IMG/VR virus record: IMGVR_UViG_3300045988_102975
Coordinates: 1-36,004 of that record
Length of the DNA: 36,004 nt
Origin: a virus
Direction: 5' to 3' (one strand)
The translations under genes were made by a program, and so were the position numbers. The notes under the pieces were generated by a model, which was not told the DNA's origin, did no database searches, and worked only from the letters and a program-made list of their open reading frames with translations. This document shows positions 13,006 to 28,101 of this stretch, one piece after another (positions within the stretch are counted from its first letter, which is position 1; each line of letters opens with the position of its first letter).

Positions 13006-14352
13006 ATGAAAAAAGGACACCAAAGAATAGCCATTGATTTGATAGAGATGAACACCGGCCAGATTGCAGGACTGCCGGCAAACCCTAGGCAATGGACCAA
13101 GGCGCAGTTGGACAAGCTGAAGGCATCAATCGAGGAGACTCCGGAGCTTCTGGAGGCGCGCGGCTGCATCGTCGACTATCACGAGGGCAAGTATGTCTGC
13201 CTCGGCGGAAACATGCGCTATGCGGCGTGCAAGGCTCTGGGCATGTCCGAGGTGCCGTGCTATGTCGTGCCGGAGGGAACCTCGGTGCTGAAGAAGAAGG
13301 AGATCGTGGCGAAGGACAACGTCTCCATGGGCGACTGGGATTTTGACGCGCTGGCGAACGAGTGGAGCGACATGGACTTGGAAGGCTGGGGCGTTGTCAT
13401 ACCGCCGGAGTGGGGAGCGGCCTGCGGCACAGATAACAAAGAGCTGACGGAAAGAGAGGAAATAGAGAGGAAGAAAAAGGAATTTGAGGAGAGAATTGCG
13501 GCAGGTGAGATGAGAGAAGAAGACGAAGAATATCAGGCCTTTTTAGCGAAATTCCAAGATGCTAAAACCACAGATGATTGTTACACGCCGCCGAATATAT
13601 ACGAGGCTGTCGTGTCATTTGTCGTCAAGACATACGGCGTAAAGGAAAAGGACTTTGTCCGCCCATTTTACCCAAATGGCGATTATCAGAATGAGAACTA
13701 TCCGCGCGATTGCGTTGTTGTCGATAATCCGCCATTTAGTATTCTTGCAGAAATAATTTCGTTCTTTGAGAAGAACAAAATTAAATACTTCCTGTTCGCA
13801 CCAACACTGACACTCTTTTCTTCTTCTTCTTCTTCTTCCGCATTGCCAATAGCGGCATCGGTAAGGTATGAAAATGGCGCAAACGTTAATACTAGCTTTT
13901 TGACAAATCTTGAGCCGCGAAACATTCGGGCGCGTTCTTGTCCTGAATTATACGCATTAATGAAAAAAGCGAACGAGGACAACTTGCGGAAACAGCAAAA
14001 AGAGTTGCCGAGATATGAGTATGACAAGCACGTGGTAACCTCTACAATGGTAGCTCAATTTTCACGCTATGGAATTGACTTCGTTGTGCCTCGTGATGAA
14101 AGCGAAAGAATAGGGGGGCTTGATTCGCAAAAGAAATTCGGCAAGGGCATTTTCGGAAGTGGGTTTTTAATTTCAGACAGAGTGAAGGCAGACAGAGTGA
14201 AGGCAGACAGAGTGAAGGCAGACAGAGTGAAGGCAGAACGTGAGAAGGCAGAACGTGAGAAGGTAGAACGTGAGAAGGTAGAACGTTGGGAATTGTCACA
14301 AAAAGAGCTGGAGATAATTGCAAGACTTAATGGCGTTAAAAAAAATGACTAA
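13006..14352 (+). CDS. ParB-like N-terminal domain fused to an N6-adenine-type DNA methyltransferase, with a C-terminal pentapeptide repeat tail
   Basis: 448 aa. ParB-like LGGNMRYAACKALGMSEVPCYVV, methyltransferase motif IV VVDNPPFS, a Ser7 run, and DRVKA x4 plus EREKA/V x3 at the C-terminus. Confidence 0.7.
   Translation: MKKGHQRIAIDLIEMNTGQIAGLPANPRQWTKAQLDKLKASIEETPELLEARGCIVDYHEGKYVCLGGNMRYAACKALGMSEVPCYVVPEGTSVLKKKEIVAKDNVSMGDWDFDALANEWSDMDLEGWGVVIPPEWGAACGTDNKELTEREEIERKKKEFEERIAAGEMREEDEEYQAFLAKFQDAKTTDDCYTPPNIYEAVVSFVVKTYGVKEKDFVRPFYPNGDYQNENYPRDCVVVDNPPFSILAEIISFFEKNKIKYFLFAPTLTLFSSSSSSSALPIAASVRYENGANVNTSFLTNLEPRNIRARSCPELYALMKKANEDNLRKQQKELPRYEYDKHVVTSTMVAQFSRYGIDFVVPRDESERIGGLDSQKKFGKGIFGSGFLISDRVKADRVKADRVKADRVKAEREKAEREKVEREKVERWELSQKELEIIARLNGVKKND
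13818..13838 (+). repeat. (TTC)7 trinucleotide microsatellite encoding Ser7
   Basis: Counted directly. In frame within the methyltransferase domain. Confidence 0.85.
14176..14280 (+). repeat. Seven tandem 15-bp units: GACAGAGTGAAGGCA x4, then GAACGTGAGAAGG(C/T)A x3
   Basis: Counted directly. In frame, with a partial eighth unit at 14281. Confidence 0.9.
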
Positions 14353-15036: not shown

Positions 15037-16277
15037 TGCTATTTTCGCCGAAATACAAGCCGCTTTTCAAAGTCATGCCGGAAGTGCGTTACTTCCTTGT
15101 CAAGGGAGGGCGCGCATCCGGCAAGTCCTATGCCGTGAACACATCCCAATGCGTGAGCACGTATCGCGACCCCTATAATATCCTATTCGCACGATATACT
15201 ATGACATCTGCGGAGGTGTCTGTAATTCCGGAGTTCCGCGACAAGGTCGTGGCGCTTGAGCTTGAAAACCACTTCCGCGTGAAGGCTGCTGACATCGTCA
15301 ATCTATCGACCGGAGCTAAGATTCTGTTCAGGGGTCTGCTCGCAAGCTCCGGCAATCAGGTCGCGAAATTGAAATCATTGCAGGGCATCAAGACATTCGT
15401 GCTGGACGAGGCTCAAGAGTTGACAGACCCTGACCTCTTCGACACGATAGACTTTTCCGTCAGACTTCCAGACGCGCCGAATACCGTGGCGCTGTCGTTC
15501 AACCCTACGGACGTGCACTCCTGGATTTACGAGCGATTCTACCGGAATGTGCCGGAAGGCTTCAATGGCATCATCGGAGACGTCTGCTACATCTCCACGA
15601 CATACCTAGACAATATCCACAATCTTAATCCTTCAATAATCAAGCAGGCGCGCAAGATGGAAGCGGAAGCGCCGGAAAAGTACCGAAACATCTGGCTCGG
15701 AGAATGGGCCACGCTTTCAGAAGGCATCATATACAAGCGCTGGAAGGAAATTAGCCTGGACGACTGGCCTAAAAATCTGCCTTGCTTCTACGGCATCGAC
15801 TGGGGCTACGCCAACGACCCGACGGCGGTCGTCTGCTGTGCCTATGACATCGACACGAAGACCATCTACCTGCGCGAGGTCTGCTACCAGCCGAAGCTGC
15901 TCGCTGGGCATATCGCCCGGATCATCTACGAGGATATGGAGGCGTTTGGCGTCGACCGCGAGGCGGACATCTACTGCGACCCTGCACGACCGGAGCACAT
16001 CGGCGAGCTCCGGATGAACAACCTCTGCGCCATGCCGGCGGACAACAGAAACAAAGAAGGCCGAATATCCTATCTGCAATATTTCTCCGTCAAGTATGTT
16101 GGCGAGCACATCAAGTGGGAGAGTGACCGCTACTCGTGGAAGCCTGACCCGAAGGACCGGAGCAGATACTTGAGTGTACCACAGGACGGCAATGACCACC
16201 TCATGGACGCAATCAATTATGCGTGCGTCACGAAGCTCCGATACCTAGGGCAGACCAACCTTATCGGCGAGGGATAA
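15036..16277 (+). CDS. terL: Terminase large subunit
   Basis: 413 aa. Walker A VKGGRASGKS, Walker B-like FVLDEAQE, and a C-terminal nuclease region with DGNDHLMDAINY. Confidence 0.9.
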   Translation: MLFSPKYKPLFKVMPEVRYFLVKGGRASGKSYAVNTSQCVSTYRDPYNILFARYTMTSAEVSVIPEFRDKVVALELENHFRVKAADIVNLSTGAKILFRGLLASSGNQVAKLKSLQGIKTFVLDEAQELTDPDLFDTIDFSVRLPDAPNTVALSFNPTDVHSWIYERFYRNVPEGFNGIIGDVCYISTTYLDNIHNLNPSIIKQARKMEAEAPEKYRNIWLGEWATLSEGIIYKRWKEISLDDWPKNLPCFYGIDWGYANDPTAVVCCAYDIDTKTIYLREVCYQPKLLAGHIARIIYEDMEAFGVDREADIYCDPARPEHIGELRMNNLCAMPADNRNKEGRISYLQYFSVKYVGEHIKWESDRYSWKPDPKDRSRYLSVPQDGNDHLMDAINYACVTKLRYLGQTNLIGEG

Positions 16278-16301
16278 AAAACCCCGCTCCGAGGAGCAGG
16301 G
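16276..16301 (-). terminator. Intrinsic terminator for the leftward insert
   Basis: On the minus strand: a hairpin (CCC-T-GCTC CTCG GAGC-G-GGG, one internal mismatch) followed by TTTTTT (A6 at 16276-16281 on plus). Lies between the convergent terL and 16342-16731 genes. Confidence 0.5.
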
Positions 16302-16341
16302 CGAAAGGCTTATATCATTAAAGGGATGCGACCGCCCAGCC

Positions 16342-16731
16342 TTACAGGCGGACGCTTGCCAGTGAACTCGCGATGTCTTTCAGCGCGTGCTCGAGGGTGG
16401 CCTTCTCTGCGTCCGTGAACTCGGCACGCTTCCCGTTGACGGCAAGCCCGTTGATTCTCTGACACAGCCATGCACGTGACTTCCCGAAGTACCTCTTCGC
16501 GACATAGGCCATCGAAATTGCAGGCAGAACATGGGAAAGCCTCTCCCTCATGCTCATGTCCTTCGCCTCCGCGATCGACTCGTCAAGCTGACGAGCCATG
16601 GCCTCCGCAACCGCTTGCGGGTCCTCGGCGCATGCCGCGCTCATTTCCGCCCTGACGGAGTTTCTCTCCGCGTCTGTCTTTGCGTTGACGAACCTGGCCT
16701 TCAGTTCATCCATATAAGTCTTGTCTATCAT
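16342..16731 (-). CDS. Hypothetical protein, resembling the DUF5053-type proteins of Bacteroidota phages
   Basis: 129 aa. The AISMAYVAKRYFGKSRAWLCQRINGLAVNGKRAEFTDAE segment matches my recollection of that family. Antisense to the structural operon. Confidence 0.5.
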   Translation of the reverse strand: MIDKTYMDELKARFVNAKTDAERNSVRAEMSAACAEDPQAVAEAMARQLDESIAEAKDMSMRERLSHVLPAISMAYVAKRYFGKSRAWLCQRINGLAVNGKRAEFTDAEKATLEHALKDIASSLASVRL

Positions 16732-22983: not shown

Positions 22984-23430
22984 ATGGCAAAACTTGGAAA
23001 CGTGAGGAAATTCTACCTCACAACAGGCAAAACTGCTGGAACCTTCACCTGGCTGAAGGGCGAGCAGAACAACGGCTTCAACCGCACAGCTGAAGCAATC
23101 GAAGTAAGTGATAAGCAAAACAGATGGGCACAATTCCTTTCTGGAAAGTTGGGAGCGACCGCGTCTGTAACAGTCTTCACTGATGACGCGGCAAGCGAGA
23201 TGCAACATAAAATTATCAGTTCGCTTCACAATGGACAATCGGTGTTCGGCTTCATCGGCGAGCTTTCGGGCGATACAGGCAGCGCAACACCTACCGAGGG
23301 GGATCTCTTTGAGGCAATCATCACAGGAATCTCCGACACCAACGACTATGGATCTGTCGCGTCTCGCTCAATAGACCTGACGGTCACAGGAGAACCAACA
23401 CACTATCCAACCATATCGGCAGAAGTATGA
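22984..23430 (+). CDS. Major tail protein
   Basis: 148 aa. Lies directly before the chaperone and tape-measure genes. Beta-rich sequence KFYLTTGKTAGTFTWLKGEQNNGFNRTAEAIEVSDK. Confidence 0.65.
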   Translation: MAKLGNVRKFYLTTGKTAGTFTWLKGEQNNGFNRTAEAIEVSDKQNRWAQFLSGKLGATASVTVFTDDAASEMQHKIISSLHNGQSVFGFIGELSGDTGSATPTEGDLFEAIITGISDTNDYGSVASRSIDLTVTGEPTHYPTISAEV

Positions 23431-23957
23431 CGGCGGAGTTTTCTATCGAATTGAAGAAAGGCGTGGCGGTGAACATCTTGATTACGCCGCGCCTTTTTGT
23501 TTACAAGGGGCGCGAGGGCGTCACCTTGGAGGCTGACGGGGAAAACATCCCTGCCGTCATGTCGCTTTATGCGGACGTGCTGTATTGCGGTGCGCTGAAC
23601 TGGTGGGAGCTCTCTGGCAAGGATGCGGACGAGTTCGAATACAAACGCATGGACTTCCACGTCTGGGCTGCCGAGCATCCGGACGAGTTCGGGCGAATTG
23701 TCGCAAAGGCCGTGCGGCTGCTGTCAGGAAAGAGCCTTGCGGAGCTGACGGACGAGGCAAAGAAGAAGCAGGACGCAAAAAAAAAATCATTGTGTGGCTG
23801 GATTACGCGGATATTGAGGCGTTTCTGGTGGGGAGGTGCGGCAAGAGTGAGGAAGAAGCGGGATGGGTCAGCATGCGGCAGTACATCCTCTTGCGTGAGG
23901 CGGCGGAACAGGACGAGCGGCGGAAATGGGAGCGTGCAAGGTGGCAGATGTTCCTAG
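23427..23957 (+). CDS. Tail assembly chaperone, G-like frame
   Basis: The first ~120 aa look protein-like. After the A10 run the frame continues as an Arg/Gly/Cys-rich, low-quality sequence. Confidence 0.55.
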   Translation: MTAEFSIELKKGVAVNILITPRLFVYKGREGVTLEADGENIPAVMSLYADVLYCGALNWWELSGKDADEFEYKRMDFHVWAAEHPDEFGRIVAKAVRLLSGKSLAELTDEAKKKQDAKKKSLCGWITRILRRFWWGGAARVRKKRDGSACGSTSSCVRRRNRTSGGNGSVQGGRCS

Positions 23958-24136
23958 CCTTGCAGATGAACCCTTATGTGAAGCAGAAGCCGTCCACGCC
24001 GGCGCTGTGGGTTCCGTTTTCATGGGAGAAGGATGCGGAAGCGGCAAGGGCACAGGAAGGAGACTGGCAAGTATCACGGCACGAACAACTGGAATTGGAC
24101 AGATTGCTGGAAGATTTCATAAAATCGAAAGAATGA
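23427..24136 (+). CDS. Tail assembly chaperone GT-like product via a -1 shift at A10 (23777-23786)
   Basis: The -1 frame after the A run reads KKKIIVWLDYADIEAFLVGRCGKSEEEAGW... (protein-like) and ends 2 nt before the tape measure ATG. Confidence 0.55.
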
Positions 24137-24137
24137 C

Positions 24138-25811
24138 ATGGGAAAGATAGGTGACCTCTGGGTCAAGTTGAAACTCAAATCGGACGAATACAAGAAAGGG
24201 CTGGACGATGCACAAAGCAAGACGCGGTCGTTCTCTGACAAGATAAAGAGCTTGTCCGTCACGGCAAAGGCCATCTGGGGTGCCATCGGCATATCTGCCG
24301 CAAAATTGGCAGGTGACTTCATCAAGTCGTCGCAGACCATTGGCGACGCTTGGGATAAGACAATGACCAGGCTCACGACGAAGTGGCAGGCGGTAGTTGC
24401 CGAGCTCAACCGCTCGCTGGCCGGCTCGGGCACGGAGAGCCTCGGACAACAGCTAGCGAGGGGATTCATGGGGCCTATCTGGGGAACGCTTTTCGGGCCG
24501 AACTCCAAGCGGGCAGGACTTGCCGGCAAGTCATTGTCAGAGGCAAAGGACGCTATGACGGAGATTGAGTACGCCTTCCGGCTGACGATGGCACAAACAG
24601 GCCCGAAACTTCACGAGCTGTACCTCAAGATGATGAACTCTGCGCTCTCGGCTTCGGAAAGGGAGGCAGCTGCAAAGGACTACCGAAAGGAGGTAGAGGA
24701 CATCTACGCGCCGCGCGTGAAAGGAATTAAGGATGTCATGGACAAGACGGCACAGCAATATCTTGCCATCGGCGGCATTTCTCCGGATAAATACAGCACC
24801 GACAAGGTGCTTGAACTCATCAAGATGATGGGGTCGGATCCGGCAAAGGTCGAGCGCGAATATAGTGACTTCTTCGCAGGCTATCAGAGCATTGGCGACG
24901 ACATCTCCGGCAACCTCGTGAACACAATGGAGGCATATTACAATGCCACCAACGAGATGAACGACATCCTGAAGCGTGCCGACCGCACGGCGCAGTCGAT
25001 GGAGAAAACAGGACTTGACGACATCATCAAGAAGCTGGGCGCCGCCAAGGACGGCATGGCGGACTTCCGCGCCCAGGTCGCAGAAGAAGCGGAAGTGATA
25101 GCCGCCGACGAGGAGTTCCAGAAGATGTCCGACCCTCTGGAAGAGTTCGAGCGGACACACGACGAGGCGTTGAGCAACATGACGGAGAAGCAGCGGACAT
25201 TCGCGGAGCTCGCACAGGAATCATACGAGAAGGCAGCACGCGCAGCGTATGATTATGCGCAACAGGAGCAAGAATCAATGAATATCGCTCAAGATGCAGC
25301 CGACACGGCAATGGAAGGACTGGAACAGCTCGAAAAGGCGTCTATTGCTGTTGGCGAATACCTCGGCGATGCTTTTGCAGCGAGCGTCTCGGATAGTTTC
25401 CAAACGCTTACAGACGCTCTCTCAGGCGTTAGCGACCTCGATGCTGGTACGCTTACCACGGCGCTCCTCAAACCGTTTGCGGATATGGCGAAGCAGATGG
25501 GTGAATATCTTGTATCAATGGGAACCGCCATTCTGATTACCAAGAAGCTAGCCATCAAGAATCCTGAATTAATGATAGCGGCAGGTGTTGCACTGACAGC
25601 TCTAGGCGCAGCCCTGTCAAGCGGCATACAGGCAATTTCCAATTCACTCGGCAGTGGCGGCGGTGCGTCATCATCCGCATCGGCAGGATCATCTACTCCA
25701 ACAACCGACAGCAACATCTCCACGGAAATGACAATATACGTGAAGGGCAAGATTTCCGGCAAGGACATACTCATATCGGGCGACAATGCTCGCAGTTATT
25801 ACAGGAGGTAA
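24138..25811 (+). CDS. Tail tape measure protein
   Basis: 557 aa, helical and Ala-rich with a hydrophobic segment near the C-terminus. Canonical position after G/GT. Confidence 0.8.
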   Translation: MGKIGDLWVKLKLKSDEYKKGLDDAQSKTRSFSDKIKSLSVTAKAIWGAIGISAAKLAGDFIKSSQTIGDAWDKTMTRLTTKWQAVVAELNRSLAGSGTESLGQQLARGFMGPIWGTLFGPNSKRAGLAGKSLSEAKDAMTEIEYAFRLTMAQTGPKLHELYLKMMNSALSASEREAAAKDYRKEVEDIYAPRVKGIKDVMDKTAQQYLAIGGISPDKYSTDKVLELIKMMGSDPAKVEREYSDFFAGYQSIGDDISGNLVNTMEAYYNATNEMNDILKRADRTAQSMEKTGLDDIIKKLGAAKDGMADFRAQVAEEAEVIAADEEFQKMSDPLEEFERTHDEALSNMTEKQRTFAELAQESYEKAARAAYDYAQQEQESMNIAQDAADTAMEGLEQLEKASIAVGEYLGDAFAASVSDSFQTLTDALSGVSDLDAGTLTTALLKPFADMAKQMGEYLVSMGTAILITKKLAIKNPELMIAAGVALTALGAALSSGIQAISNSLGSGGGASSSASAGSSTPTTDSNISTEMTIYVKGKISGKDILISGDNARSYYRR

Positions 25812-25812
25812 C

Positions 25813-28101
25813 ATGGCAGAATATGGACTTAAATATGTGGCGAATTTTGACAGCCGAAAGGAAGCCGGCGCAAAGGCATTCACCTTGGAGATATGGCAGA
25901 AGGATCTGCCGCAATCATTCGAGGCGAAGACTATCCGCGCATGGCGAGGGCTGACGCTTGAGGTCGACGGAGACGACGACCCTGTCTCTCCTGTTCAGAA
26001 GACCATCGTGAATTTTACGCTCGTGGACGCGCCGGAGATTGCGGACGCGGCGACGGAGAAGTCTGGAGACTGGCAGGAGTTCTTCACGCCTGACAGCACA
26101 ATGTATAAGGTTATCATCAAGCAAGGGATGCAATTCTTGTGGAGCGGGTTCATAACGCCCGACAACTGGCAGGAATCGCTGGACTATCGCGGTGCGGTGA
26201 CCATTACCGCGCGCGACAACATCGGCCATCTCCAGGACTTCGATTTCGACCTTCAGGGAGACAATGCCGGCACGGCAACGATTGCCAACCTGCTGAAGGC
26301 GGCAATCGACAAGATAGACTTCCAGATGGCTATATATTACCTTCTCGGCGAGTGGGAGTATCAGTCAGCTCACAAGTGGATATTATACGACAATTCGGAA
26401 TTGGCGGACTTCCGCGTGAATGTGTCGCAGTTCGAAGGAAAGAACTGGTACGATGTCTTGGAATCAGTCTTGTCCTCGTTGGGCCTGTTTATCCGTTACA
26501 CAGGGAACAACCAGTACGTTGTGAGCCATCTGCGGTACTTGCCGTGGCTCGGGAATCCGACACAGCAGAGCACTGATGTGCAGGATGTCGTTTTCCTCGG
26601 CGGCGGCACCCGCACTTACAAGCCGGCGTATAAGCGGATAGTCGAGAATGTGAAGTATGACTTCAACGAAGAGGCACAATATGACGCAGCGGACGGCCTG
26701 TCATTGGAAGCAGCTACTGACACATACACGACCAACATCTCCGTAATGATTCAGGAGCGTCCTGCGACATACGCGCAGATAACAGGTGCTATAACCAAGA
26801 ACACCAATGCTGCCGCTAAAGGCTGGCAAACAGGTAACGGCTTCGGGCCATTGACTGGCAGGACATCATCCGAGTTGGACCTTGACCACGTAGCGCTATT
26901 GGCCGCCAACGAGAAAACCGCGTCAAGAGTGTTCGTCTACAACATCGACACATTGCTGGCCGGCATGAACGGCACGCTGGAGCTGCAATTCGCAGAAAGT
27001 CCTGCGATATATGCACAGCGAAGGGGGCGACAACCTGAATATGTGCTGCTGACACATTCTACGACTGGAGAAAGCGGTGGAATGACGGAAAGAAAAGAAT
27101 TCACTCCGCACCTGTCGTCGCTCAAGTATGCGCTGATATTCACGACTTTGGACGGCACAAAATATTATAAGACAGAAACGAGCTGGCAGCAGGGGAGCAA
27201 GATTCTTGAATATAACGAAAATCAGAATGCCGGCTCCATATCTTTCAATCTCGAGGATTCGTCCACCCTCATCGGGCAGACTCTGATGCGCACGGCCGGC
27301 CGCCTGCGTCTTGTCCTGTCGGAGATATACTTCGATGTCGGAGATGCTAACGTGTTATTGACGCCTCAAGGCTGCGGTGTATATATGGCTGTCACCGGCA
27401 TTTCCCTGAAGGCCGAAGCTGTCGGCAAACTGGAGTCAGACACGACCACGACAATCAACAATGACCATTACAACGTGACGGAAACGCGCTCTCCGGACAT
27501 AGGGTTCCTGAGCCGTGACGTGGTTTGGCAAACGTCGCAGAACTACGGCAACGCCGTGTATTATGCGAACAGCGAGGGGCTCGTCGCGCCTGTCCTGTAT
27601 CGCGTCACCTGGGATGGCGTGACTTCTCCGTTTCCGGTGTTCATTCACAAGCAGATCCTCCAATACCACCGCGAGCCGATGCAGATGCTGGAGGGTGACT
27701 GCATGCCTTCGCCGGCAGGAGTATGGAACTACAATGCCGTCGTCAGATACAAGGGGCATAAATTCCTGTTGCAGGGCGGCACGTATGACTTCGTTTCGGG
27801 CATCATGTCCGGAGTGCGGCTCCACGAGTTCGAGCAGTACGACGACATCTGGAGCGAGGATGCACCGGAAGTGGGCGGCGTGTGGTCCGTGACGCTGGAG
27901 GCGGTTGGCCCGAACAAGATGCAAGTCATACATGCCCTGGTCGACAGCGCCGGCATTGCCTTAAAGGACGCAAAGACCATTGCGGACAATGCGCCTTCAC
28001 TGGTAGGCAATAATTACACCCATGCTGAAGCACAGAGCATCCAGAAAGCGATAGCGGCGGCCGGAGGTACGGCCACCATTGCAGAAGTGACTACTAACTA
28101 A
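25813..28101 (+). CDS. Large tail-tip/baseplate protein with a C-terminal ribosomal L7/L12-CTD-like domain
   Basis: 763 aa from the ATG preceded by AGGAGGT. First gene after the tape measure. The last ~70 aa align by eye with the bL12 C-terminal domain. Confidence 0.7.
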   Translation: MAEYGLKYVANFDSRKEAGAKAFTLEIWQKDLPQSFEAKTIRAWRGLTLEVDGDDDPVSPVQKTIVNFTLVDAPEIADAATEKSGDWQEFFTPDSTMYKVIIKQGMQFLWSGFITPDNWQESLDYRGAVTITARDNIGHLQDFDFDLQGDNAGTATIANLLKAAIDKIDFQMAIYYLLGEWEYQSAHKWILYDNSELADFRVNVSQFEGKNWYDVLESVLSSLGLFIRYTGNNQYVVSHLRYLPWLGNPTQQSTDVQDVVFLGGGTRTYKPAYKRIVENVKYDFNEEAQYDAADGLSLEAATDTYTTNISVMIQERPATYAQITGAITKNTNAAAKGWQTGNGFGPLTGRTSSELDLDHVALLAANEKTASRVFVYNIDTLLAGMNGTLELQFAESPAIYAQRRGRQPEYVLLTHSTTGESGGMTERKEFTPHLSSLKYALIFTTLDGTKYYKTETSWQQGSKILEYNENQNAGSISFNLEDSSTLIGQTLMRTAGRLRLVLSEIYFDVGDANVLLTPQGCGVYMAVTGISLKAEAVGKLESDTTTTINNDHYNVTETRSPDIGFLSRDVVWQTSQNYGNAVYYANSEGLVAPVLYRVTWDGVTSPFPVFIHKQILQYHREPMQMLEGDCMPSPAGVWNYNAVVRYKGHKFLLQGGTYDFVSGIMSGVRLHEFEQYDDIWSEDAPEVGGVWSVTLEAVGPNKMQVIHALVDSAGIALKDAKTIADNAPSLVGNNYTHAEAQSIQKAIAAAGGTATIAEVTTN

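Follow-up and report, generated by a model that had tools for sequence, protein, structure and literature searches.

A bL12 C-terminal domain at the end of a predicted tail-tip hub protein in temperate Bacteroidales phages

Why would a phage carry a domain of the ribosomal stalk at the end of a tail protein? The question is raised by IMG/VR virus record IMGVR_UViG_3300045988_102975. We analyzed positions 1 to 36,004 of this record, a stretch of 36,004 nucleotides (nt) referred to here as the window, in which the gene directly downstream of the tape measure gene encodes a protein whose last part resembles the C-terminal domain (CTD) of ribosomal protein bL12 (L7/L12). An earlier note, made from the sequence alone, had drawn attention to this resemblance and had suggested host contact, a moonlighting binding module, or a processed product that tampers with translation as possible roles. 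The explanation we favor, with modest confidence, is that the bL12 CTD is here an exapted, tethered, and virion-exposed binding module.

The module and its carrier protein

Translation of nt 27883-28098 on the plus strand reproduces exactly the C-terminal peptide quoted in the earlier note. By sequence profile and predicted structure, the module is a genuine homologue of the bL12 CTD, as had been proposed. The Pfam family PF00542 (Ribosomal_L12) matched with E=3.2e-12 and 47 bits in the whole protein and with E=9.6e-14 and 51.9 bits in the last 82 amino acids (aa), well above the gathering cutoff of 25.9 bits, and the match spans profile positions 2-66 of 67. A phmmer search against PDB sequences returned almost exclusively bL12 chains, with 1ctf matched at E=1e-7 and a bias of 0.5, in an alignment that opens at the first strand, closes at the last helix, and covers strands and helices alike. 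A similarity limited to low-complexity Ala-rich helices, named in the note among the findings that would undo its proposal, is excluded by this bias and by the inclusion of the strands. Identity to the E. coli bL12 CTD was 31% over 68 columns, in agreement with the "roughly one third" counted by eye.

The AlphaFold2 model of the whole protein, built from 32 homologues, had a mean predicted local distance difference test (pLDDT) score of 86.9. In this model, residues 699-768 form a beta-alpha-alpha-beta-alpha-beta arrangement, preceded by disordered residues 691-697. When the predicted module was searched with Foldseek, it superposed on bL12 of M. tuberculosis (8yeq) with a template modeling (TM) score of 0.90 and on that of E. 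coli (1ctf) with 0.89, at a root mean square deviation (rmsd) of 1.4 A. ClpS, which belongs to the same fold class as the bL12 CTD, was considered as an alternative identity and rejected, since PF00542 was the sole Pfam family matched at E<=10 and, among the top structural hits, those to the module were all bL12.

The placement of the module on a tail-tip protein gains support from both the position of the gene and the predicted fold of its product. The carrier is modeled as a baseplate hub of the gp27/Mu gp44/VgrG/Tal type, and its gene occupies the slot right after the tape measure gene. Foldseek matches of the core in the PDB included the PVC spike 9qgm (E=1.9e-7), Mu gp44 1wru (E=5.8e-7; target TM score, TMt, 0.43), MuSo2 3cdd, VgrG entries, the NF5 Tal 9m7n, a monocin tip, 9ki1, and 3d37, and the hub, spike, VgrG, and Tal entries among the top 25 PDB matches had probabilities of 0.97-1.00. 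The alignments to gp44-type entries were short, with TMt of 0.38-0.45 and rmsd of 4.8-7 A. In the viral library BFVD, the best matches were a "Structural protein" of Cellulophaga phage phi12:1 (E=2.8e-30) and minor tail proteins. The searches of the carrier protein turned up neither a lysin nor a needle domain.

The true start of the protein is probably M10 at nt 25813, because the N-termini of its homologues read MA.YGLKY; this codon comes directly after the upstream stop at 25811. The note had described a 763-aa post-tape-measure protein, and its position stands, with the length, judged from the homologue starts, likely to be 762 aa. Between the N-terminal hub body and the module lie an inserted beta-sandwich domain, a C-terminal core segment, and a flexible linker (Table 1). 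The insertion gave weak matches to carbohydrate-binding module, laminin-N, and jelly-roll folds (best E=6.4e-4), and its excised model had a pLDDT of 68.8. The C-terminal core segment was confident in the full-length model and less so when modeled without the N-terminal hub; it is probably folded back against the hub body, so that the L12 module would hang from the hub itself. Among homologues, the linker ranges in length from 0 to ~20 aa, and it is Gly-rich in one of them (P0004).

Distribution, origin, and variation of the module

The survey of homologous tail proteins that the note had called for was carried out on 115 hub homologues, which we compared for what follows the conserved core end "...YDDLW". 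No more than 25 residues follow this motif in 62 of them. The L12 module, 71-90 aa long, was present in 9, besides 1 case in a second hub lineage, and extensions of 190-650 aa were found at the same junction in ~31, with modules of ~49 or 97 aa of unknown type in a few others. Among the long extensions are one made up of three BACON domains (P0081), one with a Peptidase_S74 fiber chaperone (P0115), and others with fiber-like repeats on Gly linkers. Because BACON, Peptidase_S74, and fiber-like extensions, or nothing, are found there, we regard the C-terminal junction of the hub as an attachment point for outward-facing modules. The combination of hub and L12 module was identical in 12 of 12 IMG/VR contigs matching the module, and the module is retained even between hubs that share only 41-89% identity in their cores. 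A word-index search with the 82-aa module returned 4 near-identical fragments only.

The second hub lineage (P0093, L021) occupies the same post-tape-measure slot, shares only the N-terminal hub part with the main lineage, and ends in an L12 CTD of its own (PF00542, 31.6 bits). Against the profile of the main clade, the P0093-type CTD scored 13.9 bits and E. coli bL12 scored 62.9, from which the L12 fusion in this lineage is likely to have arisen independently.

Searches of GenBank with tblastn gave no match to the hub protein in 50,697 phage records and no match to the window's CTD in GenBank phages. With the E. coli CTD as query, L12 CTDs were located in N4-like rIIB-like proteins, small open reading frames (ORFs), and an ORF of the crAss-like phage cr126_1, and none of these GenBank phage matches lies in an annotated tail gene. 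The cr126_1 ORF (L004; MT774391.1, 5530-6456) adjoins the primase gene in the replication module, and its product, a hypothetical protein of 308 aa, includes a stretch that resembles the L12 CTD (tblastn E=3e-2, E. coli CTD as query); this phage, too, has a Bacteroidales host.

Recent capture of the host rplL gene was considered as the source of the module and rejected. With bL12 of B. fragilis the module shares 29-39% identity, and with that of E. coli 28-43%; it is thus no closer to the host protein than to that of E. coli, whereas the ribosomal CTDs of E. coli and Bacteroides are 68% identical to each other. On these identities, the module is an old, fast-evolving offshoot of the bL12 CTD. 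Only the CTD was detected in the carrier; the N-terminal domain of bL12 (PF16320), which genuine Bacteroides bL12 proteins have together with PF00542, was not found. The NCBIfam equivalog TIGR00855 gave 39-45 bits, below its cutoff of 84.4, and was matched at model positions 59-124 only.

The composition and surface of the module have also shifted. Charged residues make up 18% of the module vs 34% of ribosomal CTDs, and S/T/N/Q make up 25% vs 8%. In bL12, the positions reported to contact EF-G lie on helices 4 and 5 and include V66-V68, K70, L80, and E82 (PMC5887453); K65, I69, R73, and G79 were counted with them. The tail clade has kept K/R65 (10/10), a hydrophobic residue at 66 (9/10), V68 (9/10), I/V69 (10/10), K/R70 (8/10), D/E82 (8/10), and K84, with R73 (3/10), G79 (0/10), and L80 (6/10) reduced. 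New invariants specific to the clade are G95 (K in ribosomal proteins), Y/F98 (ribosomal V/L), I106, and G115. Among modules 41-85% identical to that of the window, 12 positions are invariant and 8 near-invariant.

We estimated dN/dS (omega) by the pairwise Nei-Gojobori method on 34-70 codons, with values that are affected by recombination. Over long distances, omega was 0.14-0.46 in the module vs 0.11-0.43 in the core, and the scaffold of the module is under long-term purifying selection. In a comparison of 14 close relatives, amino-acid substitutions were concentrated in alpha4, alpha5, and the last part of beta1, at the equivalents of bL12 K59, A60, V66, A67, I69, K70, R73, G79, L80, D85-V87, A90, and A92. 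In ribosomes, conservation within the bL12 CTD is highest on the GTPase-binding face, whose partners barely change; in the tail module it is lowest on the alpha4/alpha5 face, the opposite of the ribosomal case. In close pairs, dS of the CTD equals that of the flanks (0.09-0.20), and dN is 0.076-0.113 in the CTD vs 0.004-0.041 in the hub body. Compared with the hub body, the CTD showed a raised nonsynonymous-to-synonymous ratio (odds ratio 4.7-17.5, p=2e-5 to 0.01), in comparisons that share one allelic split and are non-independent. Omega of the variable patch was 0.42-1.05 vs ~0.1 in the hub, so the strong purifying selection expected of a bL12 factor-binding face is not seen here; with values at or below ~1, we do not claim clear positive selection.

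Variation of the module also involves imported sequence. In one relative (L013), the hub is 95-100% identical to that of the window, yet nucleotide identity in the CTD is 74%. Its dS is 0.67 in the CTD vs 0.09-0.14 in the hub, and 1.96 in the patch vs 0.25 in the rest of the CTD, which marks the patch as an imported tract. A different event distinguishes the window from L006, in which the insertion (nt 26650-27500) has 40-57% nucleotide identity and a dN of 0.85 between flanks of 94-98% identity; an alternative insertion type is common to P0002 and P0006. A swap of the CTD between the window and L006 was rejected, since sliding-window identity places the low identity of the core in an exchange of this insertion cassette. 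By the same measure, the CTD is a separate local hotspot of variation, distinct from the cassette. The hub has two diversifying elements, the beta-sandwich insertion and the L12 face, and the insertion is likely a host-range determinant.

Possible roles of the module

We propose that temperate siphoviruses of Bacteroidales have exapted a bL12 CTD, which now forms a self-contained domain joined by a flexible tether to the C-terminal end of their tail-tip hub. Exposed on the virion, the module would most likely act in low-affinity "fishing" or adhesion and contact a ligand of the host envelope or the environment during adsorption. The physical logic of bL12, in which several small tethered domains capture a partner, would be kept, with a remodeled binding surface and a different partner. 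Hubs of the gp27 type are trimers, so three copies of the module would be expected per virion; we infer this stoichiometry together with the exposure on the virion, the binding function, and the ligand. A variable alpha4/alpha5 face is what would be expected of a surface that interacts with the host. Further, L12-CTD repeats occur with extracellular adhesin domains in cellular proteins (Cleaved_Adhesin and fn3 in P0201, and others), which argues that the fold is used outside the cytoplasm elsewhere. Among the functions suggested in the earlier note, a binding module or host contact fits best, and tampering with translation is disfavored by the missing N-terminal domain and the halved charge.

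Known display domains offer a parallel. Ig-like and BACON domains act as weak adhesins, and the module resembles them as a small, autonomous, linker-borne terminal domain that is sporadic among virion-protein homologues; BACON domains even occupy the very same hub junction in relatives such as P0081. Unlike these beta-sandwiches, the module has a ribosomal-derived fold, and its display role is predicted. The carrier is similar to Tal proteins and baseplate hubs (T4 gp27, Mu gp44, VgrG, tail-associated lysins) in its N-terminal hub fold, its post-tape-measure gene, and a C-terminus that is a platform for add-on modules, and it differs from them in its large swappable beta-sandwich insertion and terminal L12 CTD.

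Several points weigh against a binding role. No ligand is known for the module, and the phage has a dedicated 958-aa fiber, so the module would be at most an accessory. Relaxed constraint explains the variability of the patch as well as diversifying selection does, because omega in the patch does not clearly exceed 1, and the comparisons of allele A with allele B are mutually non-independent. The helix-4 residues that are kept (K65, hydrophobic 66, V68, I69, and K/R70) could reflect either a requirement of the fold or a retained binding face.

The missing ligand and a patch omega that nears 1, compatible with relaxed constraint, would also suit a stable soluble end-piece that protects the C-terminus of the hub or aids its folding or assembly, has no specific ligand, and is mostly inherited. 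Likewise, 62 of the 115 homologues work without any C-terminal module. We consider such a passive role unlikely, though, as the scaffold has held its omega of 0.14-0.46 over long divergence, with its 12 invariant and 8 near-invariant positions. The fusion apparently arose again in the second hub lineage, and relatives carry recognized binding or fiber modules at the same site. Divergent alleles were, moreover, recombined specifically into the module (CTD dS of 0.67 vs 0.09-0.14 in L013), which would be unexpected if the module were neutral.

An action on translation appears improbable. In this case, the module would still bind translational GTPases or the stalk region and act in the cytoplasm to redirect or inhibit host translation, either via newly made hub late in infection or via incoming hub protein. 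It is a genuine bL12 CTD homologue, and the residues it has kept (K65, hydrophobic 66, V68, I69, K/R70, D/E82, and K84) overlap the EF-G contacts (PMC5887453). For a phage bL12-domain protein studied by Mizuno et al., one peptide was recovered in ribosome fractions, but the tagged protein did not co-purify with ribosomes (PMC6375957). The module of the window could not join the stalk as bL12 does, because the N-terminal dimerization and uL10-binding domain is absent, and it reaches 39-45 bits vs the 84.4 of TIGR00855. R73, G79, and L80 are left in 3, 0, and 6 of 10 modules, the charge is halved, and within the module constraint is lowest at the equivalent of the factor-binding face, though the partners that this face would have belong to the most conserved proteins known. 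Nor is the module more similar to bL12 of the host than to that of E. coli. Known hub proteins, by established knowledge, remain at the cell envelope. The more specific suggestion of a processed product that tampers with translation is disfavored by the loss of R73 and G79, the TIGR00855 score below cutoff, and a GTPase face that is the fastest-changing part of the module, and cleavage is without support.

Equally doubtful is a docking function within the virion, by which the module would recruit another phage protein, such as a fiber or an accessory tail protein, to the hub in a bL12-like manner. The bL12 CTD mediates protein-protein interactions (PMC5887453), the module is located at the hub, where fibers attach, and its allelic variation could co-evolve with that of a partner protein. 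Against this, the anchor of the downstream fiber is equally conserved with the module and without it (70% identity in the module-less L002), so this fiber does not need the module, and the module as a dock for it was rejected; no gene co-occurred solely with module-bearing hubs among the contexts compared. Very improbable, finally, is recognition of a translational GTPase, whether moonlighting EF-Tu at the surface (envelope or outer-membrane vesicles) as a co-receptor or EF-G/EF-Tu inside the cell after entry of the hub; if true, the phage would be using a domain that recruits factors to the ribosome to recognize or take over its host, with the ancestral partner as the target.

Compared with the ribosomal bL12 CTD (PF00542; 1ctf, 8yeq), the tail module is alike in fold, full-length profile match, ~31% identity, and attachment by a flexible linker. 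It differs in having neither a PF16320 domain nor an rplJ-rplL context, in its fusion to a virion hub, in its halved charge, the loss of R73 and G79, and the new invariants G95, Y98, I106, and G115, and in an alpha4/alpha5 face that is variable where that of the ribosomal domain is highly conserved. Mizuno et al. 2019 described phage bL12 domains inside larger polypeptides (N4-like rIIB-like proteins, small ORFs of Ralstonia phage RSB3, and others), with homologues without the domain and multiple independent acquisitions, and read these domains as acting on translation (PMC6375957). The protein of the window is like theirs in that a PF00542 domain is embedded in a larger phage protein and homologues exist without it, 62 of 115 ending at the core. 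However, their carriers and the replication-module ORF of cr126_1 are non-structural or unannotated, whereas the carrier in the window is a predicted tail hub. No tail or structural fusion is mentioned by Mizuno et al. 2019 (PMC6375957), and full-text literature searches returned no report of a bL12 domain fused to a tail or structural protein. The tail-hub carrier class is new for the bL12 domain, and embedded phage bL12 domains were already known (PMC6375957).

The module would add a new fold to the small display modules on phage tail proteins, here in temperate phages of human-gut Bacteroidales, and together with the beta-sandwich cassette it is a candidate host-range determinant. Virome surveys count PF00542 matches as "virus-encoded ribosomal proteins" and read them as translation-manipulation tools. 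The module described here is a well-supported counter-example, located on a predicted virion hub, unable to join the stalk, and evolving fastest on its GTPase-binding face, and on its account some "viral ribosomal proteins" would be exaptations unrelated to translation.

Cellular proteins with L12 CTDs and genomic surroundings

An exhaustive profile search with the module gave 7,689 matches at E<=1e-3. The top 150 were almost all non-ribosomal proteins, 145-3,776 aa in length and with 2-9 tandem L12-CTD units. As closest relatives of the module these tandem-repeat proteins were rejected: their high rank arises only from adding up the scores of several copies, and per domain E. coli bL12, at 62.9 bits, is about level with the best units (max 67.1). 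Across 366 of their units, the ribosomal consensus is kept at K65, I69, K70, R73, G79, and L80. They are like the tail module in the non-ribosomal reuse of the domain on linkers in large proteins, several with extracellular adhesin-type partners, and unlike it in their ribosomal consensus and tandem arrays, the tail module being a single copy with a remodeled surface.

Cellular proteins with 2-9 L12 CTDs in tandem number in the hundreds (examples P0120-P0267), and no systematic description of them was found in the searchable literature. Their partner domains include LRV/HEAT, Dockerin with SprB and Ig (P0138), Cleaved_Adhesin with fn3 (P0201), BspA-LRR with TIR, EndoS-LRR, PNP_UDP with pentapeptide, and Ribosomal_L10. 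In P0207 (928 aa), a Ribosomal_L10 domain is fused to three L12 CTDs, and in P0224 (1,051 aa) three L12 CTDs are accompanied by a TIR domain and BspA-type leucine-rich repeats. At least one of the tandem-repeat proteins, the 593-aa P0121 (WP_346660302.1) of Nannocystis pusilla with its 7 copies, bears the misnomer "ribosomal protein L7/L12" in NCBI. The tandem-repeat proteins point to a wider, largely undescribed use of the ribosomal fold as a tethered interaction module.

Table 1. Features of the hub gene and its direct neighbors, in positions of the window
Feature	Position	Strand	Description
Tape measure protein, 557 aa	24138..25811	+	Directly upstream of the hub gene; same slot as the PF10145 proteins of L003 and L008
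Predicted tail-tip/baseplate hub gene with L12 module	25813..28101	+	ORF opens at 25786 (771 aa); likely start M10 (762 aa)
N-terminal hub body, gp27/Mu gp44/VgrG-like (predicted)	25813..26655	+	Residues 10 to ~290; Foldseek against PDB and BFVD
Inserted beta-sandwich domain, exchangeable cassette	26671..27495	+	Residues ~296-570; identity drop vs L006
C-terminal core segment	27496..27855	+	Residues 571-690; ends in conserved motif "...LHEFEQYDDIW"
Flexible linker EDAPEVGG	27856..27879	+	Residues 691-698; pLDDT <50 for 691-697
bL12 C-terminal-domain module	27880..28089	+	Residues 699-768; PF00542, 1ctf match, superposition
Variable patch of the module	27898..27999	+	Residues 705-738: end of beta1, alpha4, alpha5, and following loop; equivalent to the bL12 factor-binding face
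Fiber-like protein, 958 aa	28117..30993	+	PHROG "virion structural protein" match; independent of the L12 module

The window represents a temperate siphovirus-type prophage with an integrase, TerL, portal, HK97-type capsid, tail tube, holin, and endolysin, and with no tRNA genes and no Rfam matches over its full length. A scaffold of Bacteroides sp. CAG:709 holds a 97%-identical copy of the hub protein. The order of tape measure, hub, variable fibers, and lysis genes is kept in every related contig examined, and the hub follows the tape measure in the same synteny in L002, L003, L007, L008, and L021. In L021, ORFs downstream of the hub gave no match to genes of the window, and they run up to the end of the contig. 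The tape measure protein of the window is 34% identical to its equivalent in L021 and has a weak PHROG match of its own; the equivalents in L003 and L008 match PF10145 (PhageMin_Tail). The fiber-like protein consists of a 125-aa N-terminal anchor kept in all related phages, a long Ala/Glu/Arg-rich coiled coil of the pattern "AE..R..AE", and a variable distal part, in which no Pfam match was found.

The C-terminal third of the tape measure gene (25250-25750) shows strong mosaicism: in this stretch, L012 shares 97-100% identity with the window, and L005, L006, L009, L010, and L013 only 40-70%. From about nt 25830, all six are again 92-100% identical to the window. Between the tail tube and tape measure genes, 2 ORFs on the plus strand (23427-23957 and 23585-24136) overlap in different frames; a tail assembly chaperone pair is usual at this position and is commonly made by programmed -1 frameshift. 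Upstream of the terminase, the 448-aa product of ORF 13006-14352 has a ParB-like N-terminal nuclease/partition domain and a C-terminal region that matches phrog_21498, a family of unknown function, with E=9e-79. In the module-bearing relative L007, a SocA_Panacea (PF13274) protein is encoded downstream of the lysis genes (15984-16478) and is possibly an antitoxin or a defense-related accessory gene.

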